Below, piece by piece: positions 8,022-60,595 of a stretch of 64,000 bases of DNA. Source of the stretch: Candidatus Marinacidobacterales bacterium (GTDB lineage: Bacteria > Acidobacteriota > Vicinamibacteria > Marinacidobacterales > SMYC01); contig CBDFNJ010000001.1 in the NCBI GenBank assembly GCA_965250115.1, positions 1,450,175-1,514,174 on the forward strand. The letters run 5' to 3'. The position numbers were made by a program, and so were the translations under genes. The notes beneath the pieces were generated by a model. That model made no database searches, had not been told where the DNA came from, and was given only the letters and a program-made list of their open reading frames with translations. The first letter of the stretch is position 1, and every line of letters starts with the position of its first letter.

Positions 8022-9040
8022 GTGATTCCGACGACGTTGGTGGGCAGTTATCCCCAGCCCGAGTGGCTCTTGGATCGCGAGGCGCTGCGGCGCCGCCGCG
8101 TGCCGCGCGTCCACGCGCGGGAGCTCTGGCGGGTCCCATCCGACCTGCTCGAGCAGGCCCAGGACGACGCGACGGTGCTGGCGATCCGGGATATGGAGCG
8201 GGCCGGCATCGACATCCTGACGGACGGCGAAATCCGGCGCGAGAGCTACTCCAACCGTTTCGCGCTGTCGTTGGAGGGGATCGACGCCGAGCGGCCGGCT
8301 GAGGTTCCGGGACGCAACGGCCCGACGCTCGTCCCGCGCGTCGTCGGCAAGATTCGGCGACGCGGGGCGGTGGAGGCGCGAGACGCGGCGTTTCTGCGGC
8401 GCGCGAGCGATCGAGCCACCAAGACCACCCTCCCGGGTCCGTTTACACTGGCGCAGCAGGCCTACGACGAGTTCTACGGCGACGAAGAGGCCATGGCGAT
8501 GGACTATGCTGCAGCCGTCAACCAGGAACTGCGGGACATCACCGCGGCCGGAATCGATGTCGTCCACTCGACGAACCGTGGATGCAGGCCAGGGCCGACT
8601 GTGCCGCGCGCTACGGTGTGCGCGTGCTGAACCATGCGCTGGAAGGCATCGAGGCGCCGACGGTTGTCCACCTCTGCTTCGGCTACGCCGAGATGGTGCG
8701 CGACAAGCCGGCCGGCTATACCTTCCTCTCCGAGCTGGCCGACTCCACCGCGCAGCAGATCTCCATCGAAGCGGCGCAGCCGAACCTCGACGTCGGCATC
8801 CTCGCGAACCGGTCCAATAAACAGGTCGTGCTCGTCGTCCTCGATCTCTCGACGCCGGCCGTGGAGACCGCGGAGCAAATCGCCCAGCGGATTCGCGAAG
8901 GGCTGCGGTTCGTCTCGGCAGAGCGGCTCGTGGCGGCGCCGGATTGTGGGATGAAGTATCTCTCGCGGGAGGTGGCCTCCGCTAAGCTTTCCGCGCTGGC
9001 CGACGGTGCCGCGATCGCGCGCCGCGAGCTGGCCGGATAG
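8022..9040 (+). pseudogene. cobalamin-independent methionine synthase (MetE C-terminal-like, Meth_synt_2) with -1 frameshift near 8566
   Basis: The N-terminal part (8022-8630) and the C-terminal part (8582-9040) are both clearly MetE-like (IPTTLVGSYPQP..., DEPWMQARAD..., CFGYAEM...). They lie in different frames, and restoring one nucleotide at ~8566 (CAC-TCGACGAA) rejoins ...IDVVH/IDEPWMQ. Confidence 0.6.
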
Positions 9041-9049
9041 GCCGACTTT

Positions 9050-9201
9050 CCACGCTTCCCGTCAGAGAGCGACTTGGTAACGATCTCGAAGCATGCCGAT
9101 GTGGTCTTGTGGAACAGGGGAAACCCAGTGAGGCAGCGAAGCTCCTGCGCCACCGTGAGTTTCCCAGACGCAGCAGGCCCGTGGATGAAGACCACTTGCA
9201 T
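9050..9201 (-). pseudogene. N-terminal fragment of a P-loop NTPase (AAA_33/kinase-like)
   Basis: It begins MQVVFIHGPAASGKLTVAQEL...LFH. Only ~50 codons lie in the intergenic space before the antisense reading would enter the conserved metE 3' end, so it is a likely remnant. Confidence 0.3.
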
Positions 9202-9235
9202 GGGAGCGAGATCCGGGACGAGTCGGGCGACCCCG

Positions 9236-10084
9236 TCAAGGAGCGGCCGACGAGCGCGATGAGACCTCGTCCGGAACGGCGTCGCGACGGGATGCCTCCC
9301 GACCCAGGCTGTCGAGTCGATCCAGGATCAACTGGCGACGATCGAGGACAAGCTGGCGATTCCTCCCCCAAATGTATTTCTTGAGTGCGCTCTTGATCTC
9401 TTTGTCCGTCAGTGCGCGCAGCCGCTCGATGAGATGCGGCGGATAGCGAGTCGGGAAACGATCGCGATTCTCGTCGTAGTCGACGTCCCAGAAACGAGCG
9501 TGGGTGCCGGTGCCTGGGCCGTGCAAGTTATTGAGCAGACCCTTCTCGAAACGGAACGTCTTCGAGTTGTCGATGAGCATCAGTCGGAAGTCCGGGGAAA
9601 CCATCGCGTTGTTCAAGTGGCGATCGATATTCGCGATGAGGTCGTCGAAAAGCCACATGACACTGACCTGGTCGCGCCAGTTCTCGACGTCGGGGAAGGT
9701 CTCGTCGAACTTCTTCATCGTCACCCCCGTCACCCACAGTTGAAGGCAGCCCCTCCGTCCACCGATCCGGCGGCCCACGGTCGGCGGAACCATCCCGAGA
9801 TTCAGGAGCTTGTCGAGCTGATAGGCAGCGACTTCGCTACGCCAGCTATCGTGACTCTTGTCGACCTTCTTGAAGACGGCGTGGCGTACGACGCCATCGA
9901 GCTCCATCGTCACTTTCTCCGGATTGGTCACGCCCGTGCCTATCTTCTCCCGGGAGGTGATGTCGGCCTCCCGCAGGAAGTGCTCGATCGCCTCGGCGTC
10001 GGGCCATAGCCGATCGGCCTCCTGGGCAAACGTGGCGCTCGTGCCGAGGACTACCGCGAGCAGTGCCTGAAATCCGTATCGCAT
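9236..10084 (-). CDS. secreted protein with atypical kinase-like motifs (DRHxxN catalytic-loop-like)
   Basis: A 282-aa ORF with an N-terminal signal peptide (MRYGFQALLAVVLGTSATFAQ). It has the motifs AVFKK, DDLIANIDRHLNNAMVSPD and LIDNS, reminiscent of PI3/4-kinase-like, CotH or Fam20-type atypical kinases. Confidence 0.5.
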   Translation of the reverse strand: MRYGFQALLAVVLGTSATFAQEADRLWPDAEAIEHFLREADITSREKIGTGVTNPEKVTMELDGVVRHAVFKKVDKSHDSWRSEVAAYQLDKLLNLGMVPPTVGRRIGGRRGCLQLWVTGVTMKKFDETFPDVENWRDQVSVMWLFDDLIANIDRHLNNAMVSPDFRLMLIDNSKTFRFEKGLLNNLHGPGTGTHARFWDVDYDENRDRFPTRYPPHLIERLRALTDKEIKSALKKYIWGRNRQLVLDRRQLILDRLDSLGREASRRDAVPDEVSSRSSAAP

Positions 10085-10169
10085 GAGAACCTTCGATGAC
10101 TAATTGATACACCGCTTTGGGCTCGTTTTCAAACTCCTTCCCGGAACGCCCCGGAGCTACAATCTCGTC

Positions 10170-10631: not shown

Positions 10632-10635
10632 GTAC

Positions 10636-11250: not shown

Positions 11251-11261
11251 CGAAGGTCACA

Positions 11262-12128: not shown

Positions 12129-12152
12129 AGCGAAGGGATGCTTCTTTTTTCT

Positions 12153-12812
12153 GGGTCTACGCGGATTCGTGTGGGTTGAAGACGGCATTTCTGGGTAATG
12201 GCGGAAGGAATGCCGCCACGATCTTCAGCTTGAGATATTCCTCGTCGCGATAGCCGTAGGCGCGTCGTTGCAGCACACGGATTTTGTTGTTGACCCCTTC
12301 AACTGGGAGGCGCAGACGTTCCATCTCGGCCACCGCCTTGTCCGGCACAGCTTGCCCACATGCGTCGCAAAACGCTAGGTGTAGCGCGAGTTGTTCGCCA
12401 GCCAGTCCAGGTGTTCTACATGCACACCGCCGCACCCAGGACAGTTGACGCGCCAACGCTCGTATTCCAGATAGATCCGCCAGCCTGCCAACGACGGGTC
12501 GCGGACCCGGCACACTTGCTTGTCATAGCGCCCCCGGCACCGTTGCCCACAGTAAGAGCACACAGCTGTTTTTTCGCCTCTTGAGCTGGATGACGCGGGC
12601 GTATCGGTCACCGAATAGACCCTTCAATCCGGCACACCACGAAACCTGGCAGCGCAAACAGCGAGCGGATCGACTGGGAATTTTTCACTCGGTTAGCCTA
12701 TCCTAAAAATGGACCACTTCTCAGCACCTGATGAAGTACTCGATACCTTTTCCACACAATGAGTTACACTGTTTTTCCGTCAGGACTTACCCACACGAAT
12801 CCGCGTAGACCC
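12153..12812. mobile_element. internally deleted ISL3-family insertion sequence (MITE-like, ~660 bp) bounded by 24-bp perfect inverted repeats
   Basis: GGGTCTACGCGGATTCGTGTGGGT at 12153-12176 is perfectly inverted at 12789-12812. Between these repeats lie N- and C-terminal fragments of an ISL3 transposase. Confidence 0.6.
12157..12611 (-). pseudogene. ISL3-family transposase remnants (N-terminal zinc-finger fragment and C-terminal fragment, different frames, middle deleted)
   Basis: The N-terminal fragment is CSYCGQRC...VRDPSLAGWRIYLEYERWRVNCPGCGGVHVEHLDW...RYT. The C-terminal fragment is ...GVNNKIRVLQRRAYGYRDEEYLKLKIVAAF, the hallmark ISL3 C-terminus. Confidence 0.6.
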
Positions 12813-14163
12813 ACAAAAGTTATCGATCCCGCACTCTCGACCTCGGAAAGATAGCGCATGGGCGATACGAGGAGCTCGCTCTGGCGAGTGGGTGAGAGCA
12901 CGGTTGCGTTCTCCGGGAGCGCTCCCAGAGCGCCGCTCGCGAAGTCCCTCGCGCTCTGCAGGTCTCTGCGATCCGGATTGAGCTGAAACGCCAAGGGATC
13001 CAGGGGGAGCTCGACGGGAGCGTCGGAGGAGAGCTTCCGCGCGTCGCTCCATCCTCGCCTGACGCACCGCCATGGGCGCGAAGCGGTAGATGACCAGCGG
13101 CGAGGTCGAGAGCACGATCGCGATCGCGAAGCCTTGCCAGCTCCCGCTCGAAAGGAGCTTCCACCAGCCGAAGCCGACGGCTATCGACAATATGACCCAC
13201 ACCGGCAGATAGGCGGGAACGGGCCTTTCCAGATCCAGAGTGATCACGAGAAAGCCATAGAGGAGAAACATTGGAAACACGAGAAAGAACACGTACTTCT
13301 GGCGGCGATAGAGCTCCCACAGCCCGATCAACCCAATCACTGCGGTCCAGGGCGGAAAGTTCAAGAGAAGCATCGCTCCGAAACGGAGCAGGGACTCCTT
13401 CAACGGCTGATCCCAGACGAGCATCATGTGATCCCAGAAGAAGAGCCAGGTCTTTTGCTCCGCCGGAATTTGAAACCCTGTCCTGGTCCACCCCCATGCG
13501 GCGACGGCAAGCGCCAATGACGCACCGACCACGAATACGGCAAGACCTCGGAAGCGCACGGCCCCGGCGTTGCGAATCAACGGAGGTTGCACGACACGAA
13601 CGAAAATGAGAATGATCGGAATCAGAAAGGCGAGGAGCAAGTTGTTTGCGAGCGCGAGGCCCAGAATCCCCATTCCCAAATAGAGATTGAGCGCGCCGCC
13701 GAGGTTCGCGAAGCGGATCAGGAAATAGAGGACCGCCGCGAGGAGCAATGCGTCGAGCGGCTCGGGGCCCGGTGTGACCGCTCGCATCCAAAACGTGTGC
13801 GAGACACCCAGCGAGGATCCCCACCCGTCGGGAAATGAACTGGGGCGCCATCTGGAGAAGGATTTTCAAGAGCAGATAGACGAACAGGCAAGCGCCCGCG
13901 GCGAAGGCCGCCGAAGCCCAGTTCGCGCGCCGAGCCAGCTCGCCCCAGGGAAGAAACAAAAACGGCTGAGAGAGAAAGACGAACAGCGGTCGATCCCAGG
14001 GTCCTTCACCGAACTCCGTTTGTGCGACGCGTCTCTGGTATTCCGCGCCCTCCATCCAACCAACGTCGGACGGCCCGGTAATAAAGTAGAAACCGAAAGC
14101 ACCGACGAAGACCGCGACCGCGACTCCGATGTTCAGCGCGTCCCTTGCAAAGCGACCTTTCAA
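12780..14163 (-). pseudogene. large polytopic membrane protein (DUF2723/PMT-like glycosyltransferase fold), frameshifted and 3'-truncated by the IS
   Basis: The N-terminal 125 aa (14163 to ~13800) are in one frame and the continuation (13787 to 12780) is in another. The last 11 codons (CGSTRIRVGKS) are encoded by the IS inverted repeat, so the original C-terminus is lost. Confidence 0.45.
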
Positions 14164-16149: not shown

Positions 16150-16163
16150 GGGGAGAGAACGCA

Positions 16164-17198: not shown

Positions 17199-19136
17199 TT
17201 GACCCGGGCTCCGAGACTCGCTAGCATGTTTGTCGCTCCCCCCCGACACAGAGAAAACGGAAGACCGAGAAGACCGAAAGGTTTGTCGGGCGAGATGCGT
17301 TCTGTTTTCGTGTGGACGAAGGAGCCTGGGTGGCTTTCGCGTGACGCCTATCCGGAGGTTCATCAGCGTTTCGAGATCGAGCAGATCCACGAGGACTCGA
17401 CACTTCCGTCGCGTGCCGGGGTTCTTCTGGTGGACCAAGCGCTGGTCATCGAGCGACGCGCGGACATCGAAGCCTTCGCACGCGACCCGGGAAAAGTGAG
17501 GCGACCCGTCATCGCCGTGGCGCCTGCACCGGATTCCAGTGACGAGCTCGAGATCGTTTTCGAGGTCGTCGAGCGGCCGCCCCGGCCAAACGATCTTCTG
17601 CGCAAGCTCAACAACGCGACCTACTATCTGGACAACCAGCTTCGCCTCGAGGAGTCGCAAAGAGCGGCCGAGCAAAAGGCCCAGGAGCTCGTCGATCTGC
17701 AGGTTATCGGCATCGCTCTTTCGGCCGAGCACGACCACGAACGGCTTCTGAATCTAATCCTCAGCAAGGCTCGTGAGATCACGAACGCGGACGCGGGAAG
17801 CCTGTTTCTCGTTGCCAAGTTGGATATGCCGATCGAGCTGCCCGACGGTACCTTGCGGCGCGTCGGAGGACGATGGCTGCGCTTTCGTCTGTCGCAAAAC
17901 GACTCTCTCGAGCTCCGTTTCGAGGAGGACATCCTCGAGATCGGTTCGGATAGCATCGCGGGTTACGTCGCTCAAACCAGCGAAACGCTCAACCTCGAGG
18001 ACGCCTATGCGCCGCCGGCGGACAAGCCTTTCGTGATCAACCGAAGCTTCGATCAAGCCACGGGCTACCGAACCCGCTCGATCCTCGTGGTTCCGATGCA
18101 GAATCACGAGGGGGAGAACATCGGGGTTCTCCAGCTCATCAACAAGAAGAAGGCGCGCGACATGGTCCTCGACAGTGCGGAGAGCTTCGAGCAGAACGTG
18201 CTCAGCTTCGACGAGCACGACGAGCGCCTCGTGCGGTCACTGGCGAGCCAGGCGGCGGTCTCCGTCGAGAACAACAGTCTCTACCTTCAGCGAGAAAACC
18301 TCTTCGCCCGCTTCGTCGACGCGGCCGTCCAGGCCATCGAGAGTCGGGACCCCACGACGCAGGGTCACTCGAGGCGCGTCGCCGCCATGACGACAGAGTT
18401 GGCGCGCGTGACGAATCGAGTCGAGCGTGGACCCTATCGAGACTTCCGATTGAGCAGCGAGCAGGTTCGCGAGCTGAAGTACGCGGCACTGTTGCACGAT
18501 TTCGGCAAGGTCGGGGTCAAAGAGCGGGTTCTCGTCAAGGCAACCAAGCTCTACCATGGCCAGCTTTCCGTCGTGCGTCAGAGATTCAAGACCATTCGAC
18601 GAACGCTCGAAGTGCAGTATTTACGCCAGATGCTCGACCGCCTGCTTCGCAACGACGCCACGCCCGAGCAAATCGAGTAGATGAAAGAAGAGCTCGCCCG
18701 GAGCCTGAGCGTCGTCGATGAGGCTCGGGGTGCCGTCGAGGGGGCCAACAAGCCAACGGTGCGCCACCATTCCGACTTCGCGCGACTCGAGGAGCTCGGA
18801 GCCGAGACTTTCGAGGACGTCGATGGGAGCGAGAAGCCTTATCTCGAGCCCGAAGAGATCGTCTCCTTGACGGTTTCGAGAGGTACCTTGACTGATGGCG
18901 AAAGAAAGATGATCCAATCGCACGTCGACCATACCTATGATTTCCTTTCTACGATTCCGTGGACTCGGGACCTGCAGAACATCCCGGTTCTCGCGCAGAG
19001 CCACCACGAGAAGCTCGATGGAACCGGCTACTCGAATGGTCTCGGCGCCGAAGAGATACCGCCTCAAACGCGCATGATGACGATTTCCGATATCTACGAC
19101 GCGCTCACCGCTAGAGACCGACCCTACAAACCCCTC
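17199..19136 (+). pseudogene. GAF + HD-GYP domain c-di-GMP phosphodiesterase, interrupted by an in-frame TAG (18678-18680) and 3'-truncated by an IS3 insertion
   Basis: It has HD motifs (HSRRVAAMT..., LLHDFGK) and HHEKLDGTGYS (the HD-GYP signature with P to S). ORFs 17199-18680 and 18681-19205 share the same frame across a single TAG. Homology stops at 19136 (..DRPYKPL), where the IS left repeat begins. The start is uncertain (TTG 17199, ATG 17226 or 17293). Confidence 0.65.
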
Positions 19137-20842
19137 TGTGCCAACATCCTTGAGACAATCCGCTCCTTGAAATTAGTGTCGAGGGCGGAGGAGGATCATA
19201 GATGAGTACGTTGATTGAGAGAATGACGTCGGCGAGGTCGGAAGGAGCCCGTAGGGCGACTGGAGATCTCGCCGACCGTGGTGCTGCGGCGGGGGTCTGC
19301 GATCTCGAAGTGAGTGAGAAAGCGAAGCGCCGACGTTTCAGCGCTGAATACAAGCTGCGGATCGTTCGCGAGGCGGACGCCTGCAAGGGTGACGGTGATG
19401 TGGCGGCGCTTCTACGTCGCGAGGGACTGTACTCGTCGCATCTATCGAGTTGGCGTCGGCAACGGGACGAGATCGCCAAGGCGGGATTGACGTCGAGAAA
19501 GCGAGGTCGGAAGGCGAAGGCAGAGGCTCCACGGATCAAGGAGCTCGAGCGCGAGAACGCCCGACTCCAGCGCCGGCTGGCTCGGGTGGAAACGATGCTA
19601 GAGATCCAAAAAAAAGCCTCCGAGCTCCTGGGGATCCCCCTGAACCCGATCGACGACGACGAGAACGATTGATCGTGGCGGCCGAGGAGCTGGCGGGTCG
19701 GATTGGACAAACGGCGGAAGCTTGCGAGGCGCTGGGCGTGTCTCGTTCCACGTTGTATCGTCGACGCCGACCGGTGACGTCCAAGCCGAAGCGCCGTCCT
19801 CGGCCGCAGCGAGCCCTCGACACGACCGAGCGCGAGAGAGTCCTCAGTGCATTGCATTGCGAACGGTTCGTCGACAAGGCGCCGGCCCAGGTGTGGGCCA
19901 CGCTTCTGGACGAGGGAATCTACCACTGTTCGATCCGCACGATGTACCGGATTCTGTCGGAGCACGGAGAGGTGCGTGAGCGCCGGAACCAGCTGCGGCA
20001 TCCGAACTATCAGAAGCCGGAGCTCGTGGCGGAAGCGCCGAACCAGGTTTGGTCGTGGGACATAACGAAGCTGCGCGGCCCGGTCAAGTGGACCTACTTC
20101 TACCTCTACGTGATTCTCGACATCTTCTCCCGGTACGTGACCGGGTGGATGTTGGCTCGGCGAGAAAGCGCCGAGCTCGCCCGTCGTCTCATCAGCGAGA
20201 GCTGCCTCAAGCAGAACATCGAAGCCGACCAGCTCACCATCCACGCAGACCGCGGCAGCTCGATGCGAAGCAAGTCCGTCGCCTTGCTCCTGGCCGACCT
20301 CGGCATAACCAAGACGCACTCGCGGCCGTACGTCTCGAACGATAATCCCTACTCCGAGTCCCAGTTCAAGACGATGAAGTATTGCCCTGAATTCCCAAGC
20401 CGCTTTGGCTGTCTGGAAGACGGCCGCCTGTTCTGCGGCGGTTTCTTCGACTACTACAACAACGCGCACCGGCACTCGGGACTGGGGCTCATGACGCCGG
20501 CCGCCGTTCACTACGGTCGCGCCGACGAGCTCAACGCCGCCCGGCGCCAGGTCCTTCTCGAAGCTCATCGGGCTCACCCCGAGCGCTTCGTGCACGGAAC
20601 ACCTCAACCTCCGGTTTTGCCTCGTCAGGTCTGGATCAACCCGCCGCCCGAGAAAACGACGCCACAGGAGGCCCTAGGAGCCACTTTCTCGGGGCGCCCC
20701 GTACCTGAGCTACCCCCGGATTCAAGCTATCCGGACGCGATCGCGTCGGAACCCAATCGCGACCGCACCGCGCTCACGCCCCGTCCTTCACTGATCGAGG
20801 CTCACTAAATGCAGCCTGCGGGTGTCTCAAAGTTGCTGACAC
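19137..20842 (+). mobile_element. IS3-family insertion sequence (~1.7 kb)
   Basis: Imperfect terminal inverted repeats: TGTGCCAACATCCTTGAGACAATCCGC (19137-) against the reverse complement of 20815-20842 (TGTCAGCAACTTTGAGACACCCGCAGGC). orfA and orfB are joined by an A8G slippery run. No clean target-site duplication is seen. Confidence 0.75.
19202..20808 (+). CDS. IS3-family transposase OrfAB (orfA 19202-19672; orfB reached by programmed -1 frameshift at A_AAA_AAG 19608-19616; DDE/rve integrase core)
   Basis: OrfA has the HTH and leucine zipper (LERENARLQRRLARVETMLEIQKK). OrfB has the rve domain (WSWDITKL...ILDIFSRYVTGW...HADRGSSM...YNNAHRHSGLG). Confidence 0.8.
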
Positions 20843-20977
20843 GTTCCGAACCCGCCGTCAAGACCGAGACCGCTCTCGGCTACCTCGAGGAAGAGGCCAA
20901 GCTCGGCCAGCTCGACCTGGAACTGCTGGATCTTTTTATCGAGGCGAAGGTCTACGAGGAGGGCCTGACGAACTAGC
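20843..20977 (+). pseudogene. displaced 3' end of the same HD-GYP gene
   Basis: Immediately after the IS right end, the reading frame gives RSEPAVKTETALGYLEEEAKLGQLDLELLDLFIEAKVYEEGLTN*. This is the typical HD-GYP C-terminal tail, so the IS inserted precisely inside the gene. Confidence 0.55.
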
Positions 20978-22593: not shown

Positions 22594-22629
22594 GGAAAAG
22601 GATCCGCCACATCAAATTGGGAGGCTACT

Positions 22630-43584: not shown

Positions 43585-43616
43585 CCGGCACCCGCCCACT
43601 TCGATCGCCTCTAAGC

Positions 43617-44703
43617 TGCCTTGGTGCACAACTCCGATAGAGGCCGATAGCTCGCTTGGCCCCGACTCCCATCATCCGATCATCTCGCTATCAGGCATCC
43701 CGAGGGCCGTCATCGTGTTGAGAATCTTGCACCCGATCCTTGCCTCGACTCTCTGTGCCGCCAACCCTCTCGCTCGCATCGCTGAGCCCACGATAGCCTT
43801 GTAGCGATGGAACGTTGTCTCGACTTTGCTCCGTTTGCTGTAGCCCGATTCTGTGTGCCACTTTCGTTTGCCGAGCCGAGCTTGTGCTGCAATGTTGCGA
43901 TTGCGCTGTCGGCTGCTCGCCGGCCCCGATGCGAGCTGGGCGCCCTTGCGCGGCGGTATCAGCACCCTCGGCGAGCGATGAGCGCTGTGATTCTCGATCG
44001 CCTCATAGACGCCGCTGGCGTCGTATGCGGTGTCAGCTCTGGCCGATGAGATGGGACTGTCGATCTGTCCGACAAGCGATGCAACCCGCGATGAATCGCG
44101 GGCTCTTTTGCTCGTCAGCTCGCCGGCGACGACTTCGCCAGTCTGCTCGTCGACACACAGATGGAGCTTGCGATAGTCCCTGCTCTTTGGTGCTCTGCGC
44201 AGCTGGCCGGCGTGGACAGCGAGACCGCTGCTGTCGATCAAGATGTGCAACGGCGTCTTCTGCTTGTCTTGGTAGAAGGGGACCTTACCCAGCTTCGCCT
44301 TGCGCCTCGAAATCGTGGTGTGATCGGGCACATCATTGTCTAGCTTCATCAGAGCGAACAACGATCGCAGCAATCCCTCGCTCTGCCTAGATGACAGATG
44401 AAACACCCTGCCCAGGGTGACAGCCGTCTCGATGGCGTGGTTCGAGTACTTGCGTTGACGGCCCGGTTTCCTCCTCCTCGGCCGGGGCGCGTCCCAGTTC
44501 ACAAGCTTGCCGGCGGTGAGCGAGATCCAGACGGTCAGGCTCCCACGGTTGCGTAGACCCGCCTCATATTCACGCCAACTCCTCACGCGATAGGCCTTCT
44601 TCACATACTTCCGCTGAGTGCGTTTGAAAATGCTCATGGGGAACCTCGAATCCGTGAGTACAGGACAATTGTGGACCGAGATCGCGAGTTGTGCACCAAG
44701 GCA
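43617..44703 (-). mobile_element. IS5-family insertion sequence (~1.09 kb)
   Basis: An 18-bp perfect inverted repeat: TGCCTTGGTGCACAACTC at 43617-43634 and its complement at 44686-44703. It contains a DDE_Tnp_1 transposase. Confidence 0.65.
43672..44637 (-). CDS. IS5-family DDE transposase
   Basis: It begins MSIFKRTQRKYVKKAYRVRSWREYEAGLRNRGSLTVW. The DDE region has LHILIDSSGL... and the C-terminal HTESGYSKRSKVETTFHRYK is typical. Confidence 0.75.
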   Translation of the reverse strand: MSIFKRTQRKYVKKAYRVRSWREYEAGLRNRGSLTVWISLTAGKLVNWDAPRPRRRKPGRQRKYSNHAIETAVTLGRVFHLSSRQSEGLLRSLFALMKLDNDVPDHTTISRRKAKLGKVPFYQDKQKTPLHILIDSSGLAVHAGQLRRAPKSRDYRKLHLCVDEQTGEVVAGELTSKRARDSSRVASLVGQIDSPISSARADTAYDASGVYEAIENHSAHRSPRVLIPPRKGAQLASGPASSRQRNRNIAAQARLGKRKWHTESGYSKRSKVETTFHRYKAIVGSAMRARGLAAQRVEARIGCKILNTMTALGMPDSEMIG

Positions 44704-45218
44704 GTTCTCCAGCAGCAGGTGGCCGAGCTCGACCGCGGCCAACGCTCGGTGACACGGACCGCGCCCCCGACTAATGACCCGACCCACCAGATATTGGCCG
44801 CTTGAACGAGCTGGGCTCGAGACGGTGTTCGCAGAATTACGGGAGCGCGTCGCCAGCGCCCACCGAGGAGGAGCTTGGCCTCTACGAAGGTCTCCCTCTT
44901 TGTTGCTGCCCCAATCGTCTCCAAACCGTCTCCAAAACTGGGGAGGACTCCAGAGGACTCGGGGAGATAGCCCGCCGAAAAAAAAGCCTCAACGGAGTTT
45001 CGATTGCCGCTACTCTGTCAACGCCCCCGTCTTCGCGAGGGCTCTTTAAAGGAGCATGTCCTGCGTTCGACGCGGAGGCTATTTGGACTGATGTCGGCGA
45101 TGCTGGGCCGAGCGTTCTCGTTTAATGGAGTCTCATTAAGTAATGTTGCGGCGTTCCCCGGGTGTTCCCCCAGCGGCAAAACAGACTTCGGCGAGTACCA
45201 GTAAGTGCCTGATTCGAT

Positions 45219-48993: not shown

Positions 48994-49605
48994 ATGAGAG
49001 GCTTGGTCGTCATGGAATCAGACGGAGGGCACGCGGAGATGCCCGCTTCGCGGCAGGATGCCGGCCCTCTTCTCGTGGCACACCGCCAAGGCAACGACAC
49101 CGCCTTCGCGAAGCTCGTCGAGCACTACCGCCGGCCCGTTTTCGGCTACCTCGTCCATACCGGCGTTCCCGAATCGGATCGAGACGATCTCTTCCAGGAC
49201 GTTTTCGTGAAGATCCACCGCCAGTCGCACCGATACGACCCCGCGCTGCCTCTCCATCCGTGGCTGTTCACGGTCCTCGCCAATACCGTAAGGAGCTATT
49301 TTCGGAAACAGAAGCTGCGCCGAGTTTTCTTCACGCCGCTCTCGAGCACGGAGCACAAAGACCCGGATCCCGACAGCGAGGCGAAAGCCACCGCAAACGA
49401 GATGGTTGTCTGGCTCGAGAGAACGATTCCAGAACTGCCCGCGAAGGAACGTTAGGTCTTGCTACTCGCGAGGCTCGAGGGCATGAGCCTGAAAGACATC
49501 GCTTCCGTGCTCGCAATCCCGATCGGTACGGTGAAGACCCGACTACGGCGAGCGCGGCTCCAGCTCGTAGAACGCTATGAACGCCAGAGAGTGAGTGCAT
49601 CATGA
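48994..49605 (+). pseudogene. ECF (group IV) sigma-70 factor with in-frame TAG at 49453-49455 between region 2 and region 4
   Basis: Region 2 is present (DLFQDVFVKIHR...), and after the TAG, in the same frame, region 4 follows (LLARLEGMSLKDIASVLAIPIGTVKTRLRRARLQL). Confidence 0.6.
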
Positions 49606-50291
49606 TGGATTTGTGCAAGTCATTGCGTGAAGAGCTAGCTCTCGAAGAAGAGCGCATGCTCACGAACGTGCAACAGGAACATCTCGAGAAGTGCACGGAC
49701 TGCCAGCGCTTTCTCGCTTCGCTTCACGCGATCGATCGCGGACTCGAAAGCTTGCCCGAGCACGACGCATCCGACTTCCAGGTTCGATCCGTTCTACGGC
49801 GCCTCCGCGCACCGAGGATTTCCCGGTTTCGCATTTTCGTCCCCGCCGCCGCGGCGGCGTTCCTCGCCGTCTTCGTTTTCCTCTGGATGCCACTTTACCG
49901 CGGCCAGAAGAGCTTCGATCGAGAGGCCGAGGTCGCGGATCGGCGGATCTCTCGTTTTCAGGGCGAGCTGGTCTCGACCGAGGAAAGTAGGCAAGAAGAA
50001 CCGGGGACAAACTTAGCGACTTGGACACCTTCAGTTATGTCTCGCGTCGACCGTCTTCGGCCTCTCCGCCGCCACCGGCCCAGGGTTTTGCGGATGGTTC
50101 CGGCCGCACGAACGGTGGTATCGCTGGAGTCGTCGGAGGCGACGTCGGAGGCGAACGAGGTCAGTCGCTCGACAACAAGGACGATGTGGTGGCTCGGGGC
50201 AAGAAAGGCGAGGGGAGGTTCGTGGAGAACGAGGGTGAAGAGAAGAACTTGCCCGCTGCGGCTGGACTTGCTGATGAAGCGCCCGAGATAG
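49602..50291 (+). CDS. anti-sigma factor N-terminal part (zinc-finger HLEKCTDCQ, single TM); C-terminal ~90 aa of this ORF probably out of frame
   Basis: ATG 49602 overlaps the sigma stop. ZAS-like HxxxCxxC is present, then a TM helix (FRIFVPAAAAAFLAVFVFLWMPLY). After ~49990 the translation turns Arg-rich, while the -1 frame becomes Pro/Gly-rich like a TonB linker. Confidence 0.5.
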   Translation: MMDLCKSLREELALEEERMLTNVQQEHLEKCTDCQRFLASLHAIDRGLESLPEHDASDFQVRSVLRRLRAPRISRFRIFVPAAAAAFLAVFVFLWMPLYRGQKSFDREAEVADRRISRFQGELVSTEESRQEEPGTNLATWTPSVMSRVDRLRPLRRHRPRVLRMVPAARTVVSLESSEATSEANEVSRSTTRTMWWLGARKARGGSWRTRVKRRTCPLRLDLLMKRPR

Positions 50292-51040
50292 CTGCAGCGG
50301 AGCGCAGCCTGTCGTCGAGCCGCCATTACATGCGCGCACGGTCCAGACCTAGCAAGCGCGTCGATCAATTGGCCGCCTATCCGGAGAAAGCGAAAGCGTC
50401 CCGGGTGGAAGGCACCGTCGTTCTCGAGCTCACGGTGGACGAAGAGGGCAATGTCACCGCGGTCAAAGTACTTCGCTCCGTGCCCGGTCTCGACGAAGCG
50501 GCCGTCGAAGCGGCGAAAGGATGGAAGTACGAGCCAAGCGACTCCGATAGCTCTCGAACGTTCCGCGAGCCCGTCACCTTCGAGCTGGAGAAGACGCCTG
50601 AGCCGAAGGATGAACGCTCGCTAGAGAACCTCAGTTTTCAAGAGGCCCGCGGCTACTGGCGAAACACCTACGTTCCAGGCGATCCCATGATTCGCTTGCT
50701 CGAGGCGCTCGAGAGGACGCGCGAGCTCGGCGATCGATTCCGGCTCGTCGTGGCTGGTCGAGGTGCGGCGGAGCTACTCGGGCCGGAAGCATTCCGACGC
50801 GGCCCTCTCAGTGTCGCGCTCGACGATCTCCTCGCGAAGGAGGAGAACTCGGGTCTTCCTCTTCAGCAGGCCGTCGCTCTTGCCATGGAACGCGTGCACG
50901 CCGGCGACGACCCGACGATGCCCCTCGGGACCAGCCTCTTGCTGCTGGTGACGTCGCGGTCGCTCTCGGACGACGTCGAGCCCGTCGCCGCGCTAGCCCA
51001 TCGGAGCGCGGCGAGGACGAGGACGGAATCCAGATCGTGA
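50021..51040 (+). CDS. periplasmic TonB C-terminal domain + VWA-like domain segment (probably the continuation of the anti-sigma gene via frameshift)
   Basis: It has SPPPPA and a Gly-rich linker, then TonB_C (AAYPEKAKASRVEGTVVLELTVDEEGNVTAVKVLRSVPGLDEAAVEAAKGWKYEP), then a VWA-like pattern (GDRFRLVVAG...LLLLVTSRSLSDD). There is no own TM or signal. Confidence 0.5.
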   Translation: MDTFSYVSRRPSSASPPPPAQGFADGSGRTNGGIAGVVGGDVGGERGQSLDNKDDVVARGKKGEGRFVENEGEEKNLPAAAGLADEAPEIAAAERSLSSSRHYMRARSRPSKRVDQLAAYPEKAKASRVEGTVVLELTVDEEGNVTAVKVLRSVPGLDEAAVEAAKGWKYEPSDSDSSRTFREPVTFELEKTPEPKDERSLENLSFQEARGYWRNTYVPGDPMIRLLEALERTRELGDRFRLVVAGRGAAELLGPEAFRRGPLSVALDDLLAKEENSGLPLQQAVALAMERVHAGDDPTMPLGTSLLLLVTSRSLSDDVEPVAALAHRSAARTRTESRS

Positions 51041-51507
51041 TTCCGAGCTTCTACGCAGGCGATGCCCATACGTTCTTGCTCGATGTGGTCGTTCCCGGAC
51101 CCGGAGCCGTTGCCGAGGTCACCGCGCGATACAAGGATCTCGGCGAACTCGAGAACACCGTCGGTCGGGCGAGCCTCTCTCTTGCGGACTCCCGCAAGGC
51201 TCCTGGTCCGCTCGAGACGAGCGTCGTGGAAGATTACTTTTCGTTCAAGGTCTCGAGGGCGCTGGCCAAAGCTGCCGGCGCGCTTGAAAACGGGCAGTGG
51301 GCGGCGGCGCTGAGCGAGCTCCGCTCGGTGCGTGACGCCTTGCAGGCGGCGCGGTCCGAAATGCCCCGGCTCTCGAGCGACATCGCCATGCTCGACGAGT
51401 ACCTTTCCTACCTGTCTTCACCCAACCCGCGTCTCCACGCGTACCTCTTGGACTCTTTGCGCTTTGCTTCCGCTCTCAAGCGTCTCCCTCCGCCGGCGCT
51501 TTCCTGA
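51037..51507 (+). CDS. C-terminal continuation of the VWA-like protein (reached by a further -1 shift near 50990-51010)
   Basis: The upstream in-frame translation ...ERGEDEDGIQIVIPSFYAGDAHTFLLDVV continues the VWA fold (GIxIxxIGxG-like). There is no independent RBS or start. Confidence 0.3.
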   Translation: MIPSFYAGDAHTFLLDVVVPGPGAVAEVTARYKDLGELENTVGRASLSLADSRKAPGPLETSVVEDYFSFKVSRALAKAAGALENGQWAAALSELRSVRDALQAARSEMPRLSSDIAMLDEYLSYLSSPNPRLHAYLLDSLRFASALKRLPPPALS

Positions 51508-51527
51508 GCAACTTCGAGGAAACGACG

Positions 51528-54185
51528 ATGAAACAGAAACTTCTCAGCTTCGCTCTAGCGTTCTTGGCTTCGGCCGCGATCGCCCAGGACGACAAGCCCC
51601 GCCAGGTTCAAATCCCGCTCGAGCTCTACAATCAGCTCATCGAGCAGACTCGGACGCCGATCGAAACGACCCGACCCGCGCCCGTGAACTACGCGCTCGG
51701 CAATGCCCAGGTGACGGTCCGAGTCAGCTCGACGGATCCGCGGCCGAGCGCCGACGTCCACGTCACACTCTCGATTCAGATCTTCGAGGATCAGTGGTCT
51801 CTGGTTCCAATCCTCCCCGCTGGAACGCCGGTGACCGAGGCCTCGATACAGGGAACCCCCGTTCAACTCGTGACGACGCCCGCGGGACTCGCCTGGGCCA
51901 ACAACCAGAAGGGCGCCTATCAGATGACGCTCTCGTATCGCGTGGACGCAGCTTCGGCGGAAGGGGGCTATGTTCTCAGCCTTCCGCTGCCGCAGGCCGC
52001 TTCGATCAACCTCACGGCGAGCCTGCCGGGGCGGGGTCTCGACGTTGCCGTGATACCTGCCGCCGGCCTGCGCACCTCGTCTTCGGGGAATCAGACCCAG
52101 GTTCAGGCGACGATCCCAACGACGAGCGGGGTCCAACTCTCCTGGCGCACTCCGAGAAAGGGTGAGCCTGCCTTCAGTCGTGCGCACTACCGCGGCGAGC
52201 TCTCAGGAGAGGCCATTCGGTGGAGAGGCGAGCTCGTCGTCGAGCTCTTCGAGGACGAGACCGCAACCCTTCAGCTATTGCCCCGAGAGGTCACCCTCAC
52301 GAATCTGGAAGTCGATGGTAAACAAGCCACGATCTTCGTGGAAGGCAAGCGTTTCGCGACCTTGGTTCGGGGCCAGGGAATCCACCGCATTGCCGTTTCC
52401 TTCGAAACGCCCGTCGTTCGAAGCGACGGCCCTCCGCACGTCGCGCTTCAAATTCCAAAAGTACCCGTTTCCCGCATCGACTTGAAGCTTCCGGGAAGAA
52501 AAGAAGTTTCCGCAAGTCCCGCCTCGAGCGTTACGAGTCGAAGACGCGGCGGCGCGACGGAAACGACGGTGAACGTCCCTCTCACGCAGAGGGTGACGTT
52601 GTCGTGGTCGGAAGCGATTCCCGAAGTCGCCCGCGAGGAGCTTCGCGCCAACGCTTCCATCTTTCACGTGATCCACGCTGAAGAGGGCGTTCTCGTCGTG
52701 CGGGCCCGAGTCCAGTACGAAGTGCGGCGCGGTGGGACTCATCGCTTCACGCTCGAGCTCCCTCCCGAAGTTCAGGTCAACGACGTGAGCTCGGAGTCGG
52801 GCGCCATCGCAGACTGGCGCGTGACCGCCGAGGGAAGCCGCCGCATCCTTCAGATCTTTCTCAACCGTGAGCTCCAGGGCGAACTCGTCTTCGACGTCGA
52901 CTACGACCGTTCGCTCTCCGCCACCGAGGCCCAGGAGTTGCCGCTCTTCCGCGCCCCCGACGTCGGTAGGCAGCGCGGAATGATTGCGCTCTTGTCGAGC
53001 CGCGAGCTGACGCTCAACCCTTCGGACGACGCGGGGGCGACCCGGGTCGGCGAGAACCAGCTTCCTGGCTTCGTTCGCGACGGCATCGAAATGACTATCG
53101 CGCACACCTTCAAATATACCGACACACCTCCCTCGATGAGCGTAACCGCTTCCGTTCCCGAGCGCGTCGCGGGACGTTTCGACGCCCAAGTCGATACGCT
53201 CTTGTCCCTGGGCGAGGTGACCTTGACGGGAAGCGTTACTGCCGAGCTCCACGTGAAGTCCGGCGGTGTCGACACGCTGGAGCTCGTCCTTCCCGCAGGT
53301 GCGAGCCTTCTGAACCTGAACGCGCCCTCGCTCCGAACCCACCGAGTCAGTGACGACGAAAGCCCGGTGGTCACACTGGAATTCACCCAGGAGATGGAGG
53401 GCGACTTTCGCATCGAGCTGACCTACGAGCGGATCCTCGAAGAGGGTGAGTCCGTGGTCGCCGCCTCGACGCCCAGAGTTCTCGGAGCGGACGTGGAGCA
53501 GGGCCGGATTGCCGTCGAAGCATCGAGCGCGGCCGAAGTGGAACCGGCCCAGACCGCCGAGCTATCTCCGATCGATGTCTCCGAGCTGCCGCGCCAGCTC
53601 GTCCTCCGCACGACGAATCCGATTCTCCTCGCGTTCAAGTACGTGCGGGCCGAGCCCGCGCCTCGGCTCGCGCTTCAAGTGAGACGTCACCCCACGATGG
53701 ACGTTCAGGAGGCGGCGATCGATGTCGCCGAGTACCGCACGCTCTTCACGAGGGATGGGCTCTCGGTGACGTCGGCAAGCTTCACCGTTCGAAACGCCCG
53801 GAAGCAGTTTCTTCGAGTGCGCCTCCCGGAAAACTCCGAGCTCTGGTCCGTTTTCGTCGCGGGACGCGCGGAAAAACCCGCTCTCGTCGAGGAAGATGGC
53901 GCGCGCTTTCTTCTCACTCAGATCGTGAACCGAACCGAAGGATTCCCCGTCGAGGTCGTCTATGCCACGCGCGGAGGTACTATCGGGGGCCTCGGCACGG
54001 TTCGAGCCCGGCTTCCGCGCCCCGATATCCTCGTCACGAGCTCGCACTGGGATCTCTTTCTGCCCGAAGGCCTGGACTACCAACGGCCATCGAGCAACAT
54101 GGACGTCGTCGAATCAGGGCGCGCCGTATCGGAACAGGAGATGCGAAACGAGCTCTCCGCTATTTCCGAAACGCGAGCGGCCTAG
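51528..54185 (+). CDS. large secreted protein of unknown function (885 aa, signal peptide, beta-rich)
   Basis: The signal peptide is MKQKLLSFALAFLASAAIAQ. It is a long, non-repetitive, Thr/Val/Ser-rich beta-type sequence with no recognisable catalytic motifs. Confidence 0.5.
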   Translation: MKQKLLSFALAFLASAAIAQDDKPRQVQIPLELYNQLIEQTRTPIETTRPAPVNYALGNAQVTVRVSSTDPRPSADVHVTLSIQIFEDQWSLVPILPAGTPVTEASIQGTPVQLVTTPAGLAWANNQKGAYQMTLSYRVDAASAEGGYVLSLPLPQAASINLTASLPGRGLDVAVIPAAGLRTSSSGNQTQVQATIPTTSGVQLSWRTPRKGEPAFSRAHYRGELSGEAIRWRGELVVELFEDETATLQLLPREVTLTNLEVDGKQATIFVEGKRFATLVRGQGIHRIAVSFETPVVRSDGPPHVALQIPKVPVSRIDLKLPGRKEVSASPASSVTSRRRGGATETTVNVPLTQRVTLSWSEAIPEVAREELRANASIFHVIHAEEGVLVVRARVQYEVRRGGTHRFTLELPPEVQVNDVSSESGAIADWRVTAEGSRRILQIFLNRELQGELVFDVDYDRSLSATEAQELPLFRAPDVGRQRGMIALLSSRELTLNPSDDAGATRVGENQLPGFVRDGIEMTIAHTFKYTDTPPSMSVTASVPERVAGRFDAQVDTLLSLGEVTLTGSVTAELHVKSGGVDTLELVLPAGASLLNLNAPSLRTHRVSDDESPVVTLEFTQEMEGDFRIELTYERILEEGESVVAASTPRVLGADVEQGRIAVEASSAAEVEPAQTAELSPIDVSELPRQLVLRTTNPILLAFKYVRAEPAPRLALQVRRHPTMDVQEAAIDVAEYRTLFTRDGLSVTSASFTVRNARKQFLRVRLPENSELWSVFVAGRAEKPALVEEDGARFLLTQIVNRTEGFPVEVVYATRGGTIGGLGTVRARLPRPDILVTSSHWDLFLPEGLDYQRPSSNMDVVESGRAVSEQEMRNELSAISETRAA

Positions 54186-54205
54186 CCGAGCCGCTTCTGA
54201 TCCAC

Positions 54206-54583
54206 GTGCCAACGACGGGAATACGCTACCGCTTCGAGAAGCTCTACGCGAATCAAGCGGACGTCGAGGCTTACGTTGCGATCCCCTACGCGTCCTCTTC
54301 CGGAGTTTTCATGGGGCAGCTCGTCTGCATTCTGGGTGCGGGCCTCTTGTGGATGGCGGGATGGCTTTCGTGGACGCGGGATGAGAGATTCTCCAAACGC
54401 GCTCGAATTCTGCTCCCGCTGGCGAGGGCGGTGATCGTAGTGGTCGCGACGGGGGTCTATCACGTGAGCTTCGTGCCGTCGCTCTTACTGTCTATCGCCG
54501 GCGCCGCCTTCCTCGGCCGATCGCAGTTCAGACGGCTCGCCGGATCGCTTCGTCCGGAAAGACCGGTGGAACAAAACAGCTAG
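54206..54583 (+). CDS. small integral membrane protein (3 TM)
   Basis: A 125-aa hydrophobic ORF immediately downstream of the 885-aa gene. Confidence 0.4.
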   Translation: MPTTGIRYRFEKLYANQADVEAYVAIPYASSSGVFMGQLVCILGAGLLWMAGWLSWTRDERFSKRARILLPLARAVIVVVATGVYHVSFVPSLLLSIAGAAFLGRSQFRRLAGSLRPERPVEQNS

Positions 54584-55896: not shown

Positions 55897-56011
55897 CAGG
55901 CTACCTCGATGCGGTTTGAGGGGTAACTCGTGGATTTCAAAGTGGCTTAACAACATTGTAGGCAGGGATCGCCTGACTCACAAGCCTGTTACGCCTTAGA
56001 ATAGACCCACC

Positions 56012-57558: not shown

Positions 57559-57564
57559 AGCTTC

Positions 57565-58464
57565 TTACTCCCCGCTGATTTTCGTTGCCGCCATTTCCTC
57601 GATGAAGTTCACGATTCCGGAATGGTCCTGGTCACCTTTACCGTTGTTCACGAGCGCGCCTATCATCTGCTGCACGAGCGACGTCACGGGAAGCGGCACA
57701 CCGAGCTCTTTCCCGGTGAGGAGCGCGTTGTTCAGATCCTTCTGGTGCAGCCGAATGCGGAACCCCGGCGCGAAATTGCCCTCGATCATCATCGGAGCCT
57801 TGGCGTTCAGCACGTTGCTTCCCGCGAGCCCACCTCGAATCGCCTCGAAGACGACGCTCGGATCGAGTCCAGCCTTTCGGGCGAGCACCAGGGCTTCGCC
57901 AACCGCCTCGATGTTCGCGGCCACGATGATCTGATTCGCGAGCTTCGTCGTATTCCCCGCGCCATAGCCACCGCAGAGCACGTGGCTTTTTCCGACAACG
58001 CGAAAAATGGGCTCCGCACGCGCGAAAACGTCCGCCTTGCCCCCGACCATGATGGCGAGCTGCCCCGCGATCGCTCCGGGCTCACCGCCGCTCACGGGCG
58101 CATCGAGAAAGTCGACTCCCTTTTCTTCGCAAGCCTGCGCGATCTTCTGGGACATAGCAGGTGCGATCGAGCTCATGTCGATGACAACGGCTCCCCGTCC
58201 AGCGCCCTCGAGCACGCCTTGCTCGCCCAGGATGACCTCCTCGGAGTCGAGCGAGTCGGGAAGCATCGTGACGATGGCATCGACCCCTTCGGAGCAGCCT
58301 CGGGCGGAGTCCGCTGCCGTAGCTCCATCGGAGACGAGCTCGTCGACGGGTGGCCTGAAGCGATCGCGGACCGTCACCGCGAAACCCGCCTTGAGGAGGT
58401 TCTTCGCCATCGGCTTGCCCATGATCCCGAGCCCCACAAATCCGACGTTCTTGATTGCAACCAC
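57565..58464 (-). CDS. NAD(P)-dependent 3-hydroxyisobutyrate/2-hydroxy-3-oxopropionate reductase family dehydrogenase
   Basis: A GFVGLGIMGKPMAKNL Rossmann motif, then the catalytic region typical of GarR/MmsB. Confidence 0.8.
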   Translation of the reverse strand: MVAIKNVGFVGLGIMGKPMAKNLLKAGFAVTVRDRFRPPVDELVSDGATAADSARGCSEGVDAIVTMLPDSLDSEEVILGEQGVLEGAGRGAVVIDMSSIAPAMSQKIAQACEEKGVDFLDAPVSGGEPGAIAGQLAIMVGGKADVFARAEPIFRVVGKSHVLCGGYGAGNTTKLANQIIVAANIEAVGEALVLARKAGLDPSVVFEAIRGGLAGSNVLNAKAPMMIEGNFAPGFRIRLHQKDLNNALLTGKELGVPLPVTSLVQQMIGALVNNGKGDQDHSGIVNFIEEMAATKISGE

Positions 58465-58656
58465 GCTTCACTCTCCTTTCGGTTGACGAAAACCCCGTTG
58501 ATTATAGTTCCGCCGCCCAAGAACGCCACCTCGCCACACGCGGACGTTGCGCTCGACGTGGCCGGCCGTGCCGCCAAGTGCAATCGTCAGGAGTTTCTAG
58601 CGTTGTGTTGGCGTCGGCAATTTCGTATGCTCCATCAACCCAACAGGAGAGGAACT

Positions 58657-60595
58657 GTGAGGAAAAACGTATTCGGAATCGCGACCAGTCTTGCCATTGT
58701 GGCCCTGGCGAACGCTGTCGTGGCGGCGCAGGACGTCCGCCCTCGGAAAGAAGATCAGCGCGAGGCGCAGAAGATCTACTCACCTTATGTCGTGCGGACC
58801 GCGACTGACGCGAACTTCGCCGAGGGTGTCTACTGGGGCGATACACACCTTTTATTCCACCGATTCCGGCATGCTCGGCAACACCCTCGGCCCCGAGGAG
58901 GCCTACCGCTTCGCTAGGGGCGAGGAAGTCCTGTCGGCCGCGGGACTCCGAGCCCGTCTGATCCGCCCCCTAGACTTCCTCGTAGTGTCAGACCATGCCG
59001 AGAACCTGGGCCTCGCTCCGATGATCGCAGAGTCCAACTCCGAGCTGCTCAAGAACGAGTGGGGCCGGATGATCCACGACATGGTGAAGGCCGGCGACGG
59101 GCGCGGTGCGTTCCAGAAGTGGCTCGTGGATGCGGTTATCCCAGGTGAAGACCCGATCGACAATCCGAGGATGACACGCACGGTTTGGGAGCGCGAGATC
59201 GCCTTCGCGGAGCAGTACAACGAGCCCGGACGATTCACTGCTCTGATCGGGTTCGAATGGACATCGATTGCCACGACACAAACTCCGGGCAATCTGCACC
59301 GTGTCGTCATCTTCAAAGACGGCGGCGACAAGGCGGGGCAGGTCCTTCCCTTCAGCGCGGCGGACTCGGCCGATCCGGAAGATCTGTGGGACTACCTGGA
59401 CGCCTACGAGGAGAACACCGGCGGAAGCGTTCTCGCCATCGCCCACAACGGCAATGTCTCCAACGGGCAGATGTTCCCACTCGAGCGGCTGAATGGCCAA
59501 CCGATCGACCGTGCCTACGCCGAGACCCGCATGCGTTGGGAACCGCGGTACGAGGTCACCCAGATGAAAGGCGACGGCGAGGCGCATCCCTTCCTGTCTC
59601 CCAACGACGAGTTCGCCGATTACGGCACATGGGACAAGGGCGACATCGCTGGTCTCAAGCCCAAAGAGGACTGGATGCTTCAGTATGAATACGCGCGCAC
59701 CGCCTTGCAGGTGGGTCTCCAACAGGAGCAGCTCCTCGGCTTCAACCCGTACAAATTCGGCATGATCGGGAGCACCGACGCGCACACCTCGCTGGCCACC
59801 ACCCGGGACGAGAACACCTGGAGCAAGACCCCGACCATGGAGCCGTCTCCCGATCGCTGGGAGCACGTCGTGATCGCGTCCAGCTCCGGCGACGAGTCGC
59901 TGACGACCTATTCGTACGAGACGCTCGCTTCAGGGCTCGCAGGGGTCTGGGCCCGCGAGAACACGCGTGAAGCGCTCTTCGAAGCGATGCAGAAGAAGGA
60001 AACCTACGCTACTACCGGTACGCGCATCACGGTGCGTTTCTTCGGCGGTTGGAACTATGGGGACGACGACGTCTACCGGCCGGACGCGGTCGCCATCGGC
60101 TACAGCAAAGGCGTGCCGATGGGCGGTGACCTGCCCAAGCGTACAAGAGAGACAGACGGCCCCACCTTTCTGGTAGGCGCGTTGAAGGACCCGTGGTCCG
60201 GCAATCTCGACCGCATTCAGATCATCAAGGGCTGGATGGATGAAAAGGGGGAACGCCACGAGAAGGTCTATGACGTGGCTGTTTTCGATGGACGCAGCAT
60301 CGGTCCTGACGGCCGCTGCAAAACGCCGGTTGGCAACACGGTTGATGAGGCTAATGCGACGTACTTGAACAGTATCGGAGATGCTGAGTTGCGTGCGGTT
60401 TGGACGGATCCGGATTTCGATCCGAATCGCCGCGCCGTGTATTACGCTCGTGTGCTCGAGATCCCGACGCCGACTTGGCAGGCCTATGACGCCAAGTTTT
60501 TCGGGATAACGATGCCCGAAGCTGTGCTGCTGAGCCATCAGGAACGCGCCTATACCTCGCCAATTTGGTTTACGCCGCAGCAATCTAGCCAATAA
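58657..60595 (+). CDS. DUF3604-family secreted protein, with apparent 1-nt insertion in a T4 run near 58850
   Basis: The signal peptide (RKNVFGIATSLAIVALANAVVAAQ) and YWGDTHL are in frame 1, and the rest (TDSGMLGN... to ...QERAYTSPIWFTPQQ) is in frame 2. RBS AGGAGAGG 58646-58653. Confidence 0.6.

Follow-up and report, generated by a model that had tools for sequence, protein, structure and literature searches.

Pathoadaptive loss of anti-sigma/extracytoplasmic function (ECF) sigma factor pairs occurs in Pseudomonas aeruginosa, first of mucA and then of algU. Insertion sequence (IS) expansion with convergent pseudogenization in recently specialized lineages is described in excerpts of an account of Shigella (PMC7373316). 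For long-read metagenome assemblies, the default view of the field attributes most truncated proteins to error, with some genuine pseudogenes among them (PMC13087279). Here we analyzed a 64-kb stretch of contig CBDFNJ010000001.1 from a Candidatus Marinacidobacterales bacterium, referred to below as the window, together with about 150 kb of sister loci. In the window, at least 13 independent events have damaged 8 of about 50 genes, and each lesion is derived relative to close relatives at 95-99.8% nucleotide identity. We consider it probable that these lesions reflect recent, strain-private pseudogene formation and IS-mediated rearrangement in an IS-rich Vicinamibacteria bacterium, with selection confining the lesions to dispensable genes.

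The locus shares with the mucA/algU case independent loss-of-function changes in an anti-sigma factor or its ECF sigma factor in different clones of one population. It differs in that the anti-sigma factor has an extracytoplasmic part with TonB_C and VWA-like regions, the operon encodes a secreted protein of about 1000 aa, and the system is known from sequence alone. As far as the excerpts on Shigella go (PMC7373316), in both cases IS copies are numerous and belong to several families, very close strains differ in their IS insertions and IS-mediated rearrangements, pseudogenes arise from nonsense changes, small indels, and IS, and the same genes have been lost independently in different lineages. 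In contrast to Shigella, the material here is an uncultured Vicinamibacteria metagenome-assembled genome (MAG) with large contigs, which in relatives reach 5.9-7.3 Mb, covered over the 64 kb and the sister loci, and no link to host adaptation is apparent in it. For comparison with reductive evolution of a host-restricted bacterium, the high local load of 8 broken genes among 50 and about one mobile element per 12-15 kb, the latter holding across the window and the sister loci, stands beside relatives' contigs of 5.9-10 Mb. We found no literature on the order name Marinacidobacterales, or on sponge or Acidobacteriota pseudogenes.

Two kinds of relatives served for comparison. A locus on a 5.87-Mb contig of a Candidatus Marinacidobacterales MAG (Acidobacteriota, Vicinamibacteria; L001), obtained from a KorA protein scan of species-representative genomes, is 96-98% identical in nucleotide sequence to window positions 12812-19133, 20849-24139, and 24587-28062. 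For the other relatives, three of the broken genes were repaired in silico and their proteins used as queries, and the contigs of the hits were then looked up; the sister loci were thus fetched via lesioned genes. Exact-sequence searches with the window's 939-aa transporter, sulfatase, and KorB proteins gave no match, which places the window's own assembly outside the searched collection. Loci L081, L085, and L088, which belong to a single assembly (ERZ25067256; the 99% sister below), show 99.1-99.8% identity to window positions 44064-58787, 1-12152, and 17274-33495, respectively. Loci L086 and L087 show 99.7-99.8% identity to positions 1-12152 and 6705-12152, and L082, L083, and L084 show about 95% identity to the window. 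From position 59388 to the end of the window no sister sequence gives coverage, and the sulfatase gene and the genes beyond 59388 were judged from Pfam coverage only. Pfam scans and sister gene calls place about 50 chromosomal protein genes in the window. Besides these, it contains one IS3-family and one IS5-like element, an ISL3-derived element of 659 bp, a pair of tRNA genes, and the 5' part of a group II intron.

An earlier note, made from the window's letters, had claimed eight lesions; all of them were found in the sequence, and each differs from an intact state in close relatives. Several more became apparent from the alignments: a 7-bp deletion in the gene starting at 51528, 294-bp and 328-bp deletions in the anti-sigma gene, an IS3 insertion in the HD-GYP gene, and the ISL3-derived element at the DUF2723-like gene. 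For all eight disrupted genes, close relatives contain a full-length orthologue that runs across the lesion. Conserved domains are cut as well: the Meth_synt_2 and HD domains are split, sigma region 4 is cut off, and the HxH motif of DUF3604 is destroyed.

All three genes of an ECF sigma operon are broken in the window. In the sigma factor gene (48994..49605, + strand), GAG has changed to TAG at 49453-49455, between regions 2 and 4; L081, L082, and L083 read GAG at this position, and sigma region 4 continues in frame past the stop. The next gene (49602..51507, + strand) encodes an anti-sigma factor with a zf-HC2-like N-terminus joined to TonB_C and VWA-like regions, and its intact form is 772 aa in L083. 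It carries a G5 to G4 change at 50003, an in-frame 294-bp deletion at 50698 bounded precisely by two copies of CTCGAGGCGC, and, at 51010, a 328-bp deletion between short CGCG repeats. The last gene of the operon (51528..54582, + strand), for a large secreted protein of 1020 aa in L083, has a 7-bp deletion near 54163 that puts a premature TAG at 54183-54185 in frame, while sisters retain the ancestral stop at about 54582.

The same operon is damaged in every genome in which it was compared. All four carry a different inactivating lesion, for a total of at least 11 events in about 5.6 kb. In L081, the anti-sigma gene has a GAG to TAG change and an insertion of the ISL3-derived element, and the large downstream gene has a TAC to TAG change; in L082, the anti-sigma gene is truncated by a rearrangement; and in L083, the ECF sigma gene has a 137-bp deletion. 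The sigma gene is intact and the sensor part of the anti-sigma factor is lost in L081 and L082, whereas the sigma gene itself is hit in the window and in L083.

The GAF-HD-GYP gene (17199..19133, + strand) contains a CAG to TAG change at 18678-18680 that splits the HD domain, and its 3' end is cut by an IS3-family insertion sequence. L001 and L088 have CAG at the amber position, and eleven relatives at greater distance (L002-L012) have both halves joined in a single contiguous gene. The L001 copy has a lesion of its own, a G5 to G4 frameshift. The insertion sequence (19134..20848, + strand) was assigned to the IS3 family on the basis of Pfam matches of orfA (19202-19672) to HTH_Tnp_1 and of the overlapping orfB (19450-20808) to rve, an A8G slippery site in the overlap, and a 5-bp target duplication, AACCC, judged against the empty site in L001. 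Its insertion removes about 41 codons of the HD-GYP gene. The insertion is missing from L001 and common to the window and L088, which implies that it is older than the amber codon; further IS3 copies occur in L081. Separately, the IS3 copies of the window (at 19845) and L088 (at 7221) differ by a 5-bp indel in orfB, and the sister transposase copy is itself frameshifted.

The DUF2723/TMEM260-like pseudogene (12812..14163, - strand) was compared with the intact 643-aa ORF (open reading frame) of L001. It has an 11-bp deletion at 13811 that is flanked by GCGAG repeats, a G insertion at 13025, and a missing end: homology to L001 stops at 12812, about 184 codons short of the stop codon, at the junction with a non-autonomous element. 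This ISL3-derived element (12153..12811, 659 bp, no strand assigned) is bounded by terminal inverted repeats of 23 bp that match perfectly, and it contains a remnant that matches positions 212-240 of the 240 positions of DDE_Tnp_ISL3. Its copy in L081 is bordered by an 8-bp target duplication, ACTTTTCG, so that inverted repeats, target duplication, and relation to an ISL3 transposase all agree with a non-autonomous ISL3 derivative. The window copy lies at a rearrangement junction, since the sequence up to 12152 is syntenic with L085, L086, and L087 and the sequence from 12812 onward with L001. It has no target-site duplication and its flanks are unrelated, as expected from recombination between two copies of the element.

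The metE-like gene (8022..9040, + strand), of the short cobalamin-independent methionine synthase family, has lost one G at 8567, where the window reads CCACTC and three independent assemblies at 99.7-99.8% identity read CCAGCTC in a non-repetitive context. Its Meth_synt_2 Pfam match is split into 2-171 and 225-322. Intact metE-like proteins of 339 aa are encoded in L085, L086, and L087, and the repaired window protein is 99% identical to them. The window copy also has two derived substitutions, I to T and G to V, at positions where all aligned homologues agree. Across the whole species clade (the window and its 99% sisters; P0241, P0242), the metE-like protein has P to R, R to C, and DL to NR changes at otherwise invariant positions, and the sisters have an additional Y to C change in the GSYPQP motif. 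These substitutions hint that constraint on the metE-like protein may already have been weakening before the window frameshift arose.

In the TPR-Ser/Thr kinase gene (31453..33883, + strand), an A is inserted at 31988 relative to L084 and L088, which changes TCCTATTTC to TCCTAATTTC. Homologues of about 800 aa at 70% identity cover 100% of the repaired protein. Together with the metE-like gene, this kinase gene is among the most conserved in the window (70-83% identity across orders).

The DUF3604 gene (58657..60595, + strand) has an 8-bp deletion (CATACTTC) at 58852. The true start is GTG at 58657, followed by a signal peptide and GDTHLH motif that now lie in a different frame from the rest of the domain. 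We considered whether the gene is unbroken, given an ORF at 58691-60595 with a full Pfam match, and rejected this reading, because the L083 alignment shows the N-terminus in the other frame and 8 bp missing. An ORF at 57622-58917 that overlaps this region is antisense to a 3-hydroxyisobutyrate dehydrogenase gene. Two relatives have DUF3604 lesions of their own: L083 has an extra G between the signal peptide and the domain, and L081 has a transposase of the ISAZ013 type beside a break.

By contrast, the genes that the earlier note described as intact housekeeping operons are free of such damage. There is no frame-breaking indel or in-frame stop in the mrp, kor, pdx, pyr, acdh, aminotransferase, and sulfatase genes, the last as judged from Pfam coverage, and none of the metabolic and bioenergetic genes of the window other than the metE-like gene shows a frame-breaking change. 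When the intact genes were aligned to all relatives, every indel was a multiple of three or was compensated within a few bases. These events, about nine in number, lie in ompA, pdxT, the Metallophos-TPR gene, acdh, and the aminotransferase gene, and the remaining indels are intergenic. This pattern implies that the differences between the window and its relatives are selected variation rather than noise.

Three other apparent anomalies were discarded. A suspected lesion between a kinase-like ORF (56012-56731) and a PP2C ORF in the 56-57.5 kb region turned out to be the boundary of two intact adjacent genes, which are called in the same way in L081 and L083. In the mrp and pyr regions, long ORFs that overlap one another are simply open frames extended upstream, and a shorter T2SSE gene call in L088 reflects the choice of start codon.

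The distribution of the lesions departs from uniformity to a limited extent. In a simulation, confinement of 13 events to 8 of 50 genes, amounting to 26% of coding length, gave P = 0.015. That no more than one of these eight genes has a metabolic or bioenergetic role gave P = 0.03, for classes that were defined afterwards. In the sister loci, 7 of 10 gene-lesions are in genes also broken in the window (P = 0.05). Among the remaining sister lesions, L085 has a frameshifted methyltransferase gene, L084 has a short ompA, and L081 has a TGC to TGA change at 16414-16416 (window 54805-54807) that shortens a class I/II aminotransferase by 75 codons. This last lesion, in a sister of 99.4% identity, implies that lesions of the lineage are not strictly limited to regulatory genes and genes of unknown role.

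Most of the window lesions are not present in the sister strain of 99.1-99.8% identity. Moreover, ratios of nonsynonymous to synonymous substitution rates (dN/dS) relative to the 95% relatives are 0.10-0.27 for lesioned genes and 0.05-0.46 for intact genes. Because the lesioned genes fall within the range of the intact ones, they appear to have been under purifying selection until recently, and their lesions to be recent. The relaxed selection that the earlier note proposed for this lineage is therefore not long-standing. Relative to the 99% sister, nonsynonymous to synonymous counts are 8:2 for the HD-GYP gene, 9:3 for the TPR-kinase gene, and 3-4:1 for the metE-like gene, compared to 10:19 for intact neighbors; the sigma operon shows no nonsynonymous excess in this comparison.

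Rearrangement has accompanied gene disruption. Three syntenic blocks (1-12152, 12812-43610, and from about 45117 onward), joined at mobile elements, make up the window, and in the 99% sister these blocks sit hundreds of kb apart or on different contigs. The second junction is occupied by an IS5-like element (43611..45116, - strand, outer boundaries approximate; transposase at 43675-44787), at a synteny breakpoint beside tRNA-Lys(CTT) and tRNA-Arg(CCG) (45219-45390, - strand), which are located exactly at the break. Other strains have other occupants at this site: L081 has two IS3 copies plus an IS5, L082 an IS1595 with a restriction-modification pair, and L083 an rve fragment. A copy of the IS5-like element with 98% identity is present in another Marinacidobacterales genome (L052, 6164-7071). 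Since KorA identity to that genome is only about 70%, the element may have spread horizontally between species in recent times.

The gene order DUF2723-like, korA, korB, HD-GYP, GntR/aminotransferase regulator, pdxS, pdxT, ompA, pyrF, pyrD, pyrK (window 12812-28062) is kept in L002-L012, which are order-level relatives with about 80% KorA identity, and in the 99% sister an IS256-type transposase splits korAB from HD-GYP. Near the end of the window, the 5' part of a group II intron (domains D1-D4; 62694-62913, + strand; Rfam RF02005, 163 bits) adjoins an ORF (62129-62989, - strand) that resembles a DUF222/HNH endonuclease in its C-terminal half only. No reverse-transcriptase ORF for the intron was detected before the window end.

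Under the interpretation that we favor, recent pseudogene formation constrained by selection, the window would be a long-read-type assembly from a lineage with many active insertion sequences that is accumulating young pseudogenes. Ordinary mutational processes would supply the lesions: base substitution, slippage at short direct repeats, transposition, and recombination of one IS copy with another. Needed genes would be kept free of lesions by purifying selection, and lesions in genes that are at present dispensable in the habitat would be the only ones to persist. The dispensable set would comprise cyclic di-GMP signalling, the ECF sigma/anti-sigma/secreted-protein module, the TPR kinase, the membrane glycosyltransferase-like protein, the secreted DUF3604 hydrolase, and the metE-like enzyme. 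Genes already dead would take further hits, whose neutrality would account for multiple hits per gene. A lesion pattern of this kind is what purifying selection yields in any genome. From the earlier note's interpretation we thus retain that the lesions look genuine and are confined to dispensable-looking genes, but neither long-standing relaxed selection nor a sharp split between accessory and housekeeping genes.

Several results weigh against this interpretation. The clustering P value rises to 0.13 when IS and rearrangement events are left out. The accessory and housekeeping classes were chosen after the data had been seen, about 15 kb of regulatory genes and genes of unknown role is intact, and the highly conserved metE-like and TPR-kinase genes are among those hit, so that the contrast is less marked than the earlier note had it. 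Likewise, the earlier claim of non-randomness agrees with the clustering test, but with modest support (P = 0.015-0.05) and post hoc classes. Long-term dN/dS gives no sign of relaxed constraint, and nonsynonymous to synonymous counts polarized on the window lineage show no difference between lesioned (9:8) and intact (16:14) genes, numbers too small for significance. Four of the lesions (at 8567, 13025, 31988, and 50003) are single-base indels known from assembled sequence alone. The metE-like pseudogene call consists of one such indel and two derived missense changes, and the TPR-kinase call depends on a single inserted A and is the least secure of the set. Finally, 4 of the 6 single-base indels between the window and the 99% sister are coding, which is no depletion from coding sequence and is the result that errors would also give.

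The strongest alternative is that the lesions are real but that the repeated hits reflect positive selection for loss or rewiring of modules (sigma operon, HD-GYP, DUF3604), beyond neutrality. Different damage to the sigma operon in all four genomes, the loss of either the sigma factor or the sensor part of the anti-sigma factor depending on the strain, and dN/dS values that indicate genes functional until recently are consistent with this idea, and by a rough estimate lesions per substitution would exceed the neutral expectation. However, the statistic for parallel hits reaches only P = 0.05 and comes from sister loci that were retrieved through lesioned genes, and multiple hits in one dead operon are expected under neutrality. 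We therefore regard selection for loss as unlikely, and hold it equally doubtful that selection has driven convergent inactivation of the sigma operon, HD-GYP, and DUF3604 among strains of a single Marinacidobacterales species that live side by side. If such selection were nonetheless at work, the pattern would record ongoing adaptation, for example to host, phage, or predator pressure, rather than passive decay.

It is less probable still that the lesions are minority or polymorphic alleles of mixed strains that the assembler stitched together, so that no single cell has all of them. The sample set does hold several co-existing strains at 99.1-99.8% identity that differ in lesions and IS positions, and the window is a mosaic of three syntenic blocks joined at mobile elements. 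Against this, elements of 0.7-1.7 kb are normally spanned by long reads, and lesions are found in all three blocks.

We consider it highly improbable that consensus or sequencing errors in a long-read metagenome assembly account for most of the lesions, even though this would be the field's default view of truncated proteins (PMC13087279). The resemblance to long-read MAG frameshift artefacts, as described there and in excerpts of PMC9262707, lies in split ORFs and in a small number of single-base indels, of which one affects a G5 run. In addition, the sister contigs have only 8-19x coverage, by their names, and three G-run length differences separate strains (window 50003, L001 at 18110, and L083 at 58745). 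However, most changes here are of other types, namely nonsense substitutions, direct-repeat deletions of 7-328 bp, and element insertions, including an IS with a target duplication, and these types point to mutation and not to error. The lesion at 50003 is the only one of about 11 small lesions in a homopolymer of at least 4 bases, and a single indel distinguishes the window from the 99.8% relatives in 12 kb. Moreover, the lesions cluster in a few genes that are differently broken in other assemblies, in contrast to the exclusively in-frame or compensated indels of intact genes. As to the context-specific error that the earlier note had offered as an alternative, error of the homopolymer type does not account for the set, and the evidence favors genuine pseudogenes over errors. 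Nor do the lesions resemble phase-variable contingency loci, whose tracts typically have at least 7 units, as the longest tract at any lesion is G5.

Programmed recoding (amber read-through, pyrrolysine, or ribosomal frameshifting) has next to no likelihood. In its favor, TAG forms both in-frame stops of the window and 2 of 3 in the sister strain, and the IS3 transposase of the window has a programmed -1 site, A8G, which is the window's only programmed frameshift. However, TAG is not avoided as a terminator but ends 13 of 41 intact genes, the point that the earlier note had raised against reassignment. Relatives at 95-99.4% identity have CAG (Gln) or GAG (Glu) at the two sites, and wherever the window has a frameshift their frames are unbroken. 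With this codon usage, TAG would be the outcome of 56% of one-step nonsense changes, the third sister nonsense change is TGA, and there is no suppressor tRNA within the window.

Taken as a whole, recent pseudogene formation with IS-mediated rearrangement is a known phenomenon in a new lineage, and no new mechanism is revealed. Only the ECF sigma operon, which different strains have inactivated independently and repeatedly, might repay further study. For the reading of long-read MAGs, the lesions described here mean that split genes should not be automatically repaired or discarded as errors, and that near-identical strains can separate young pseudogenes from possible artefacts. For the organism, they point to an uncultured Vicinamibacteria lineage with unusually active insertion sequences and with IS-mediated rearrangements between strains that are 99% identical. 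If the parallel hits hold genome-wide, the few repeatedly broken signalling and envelope modules would point to functions that are shed or selected against in the habitat.

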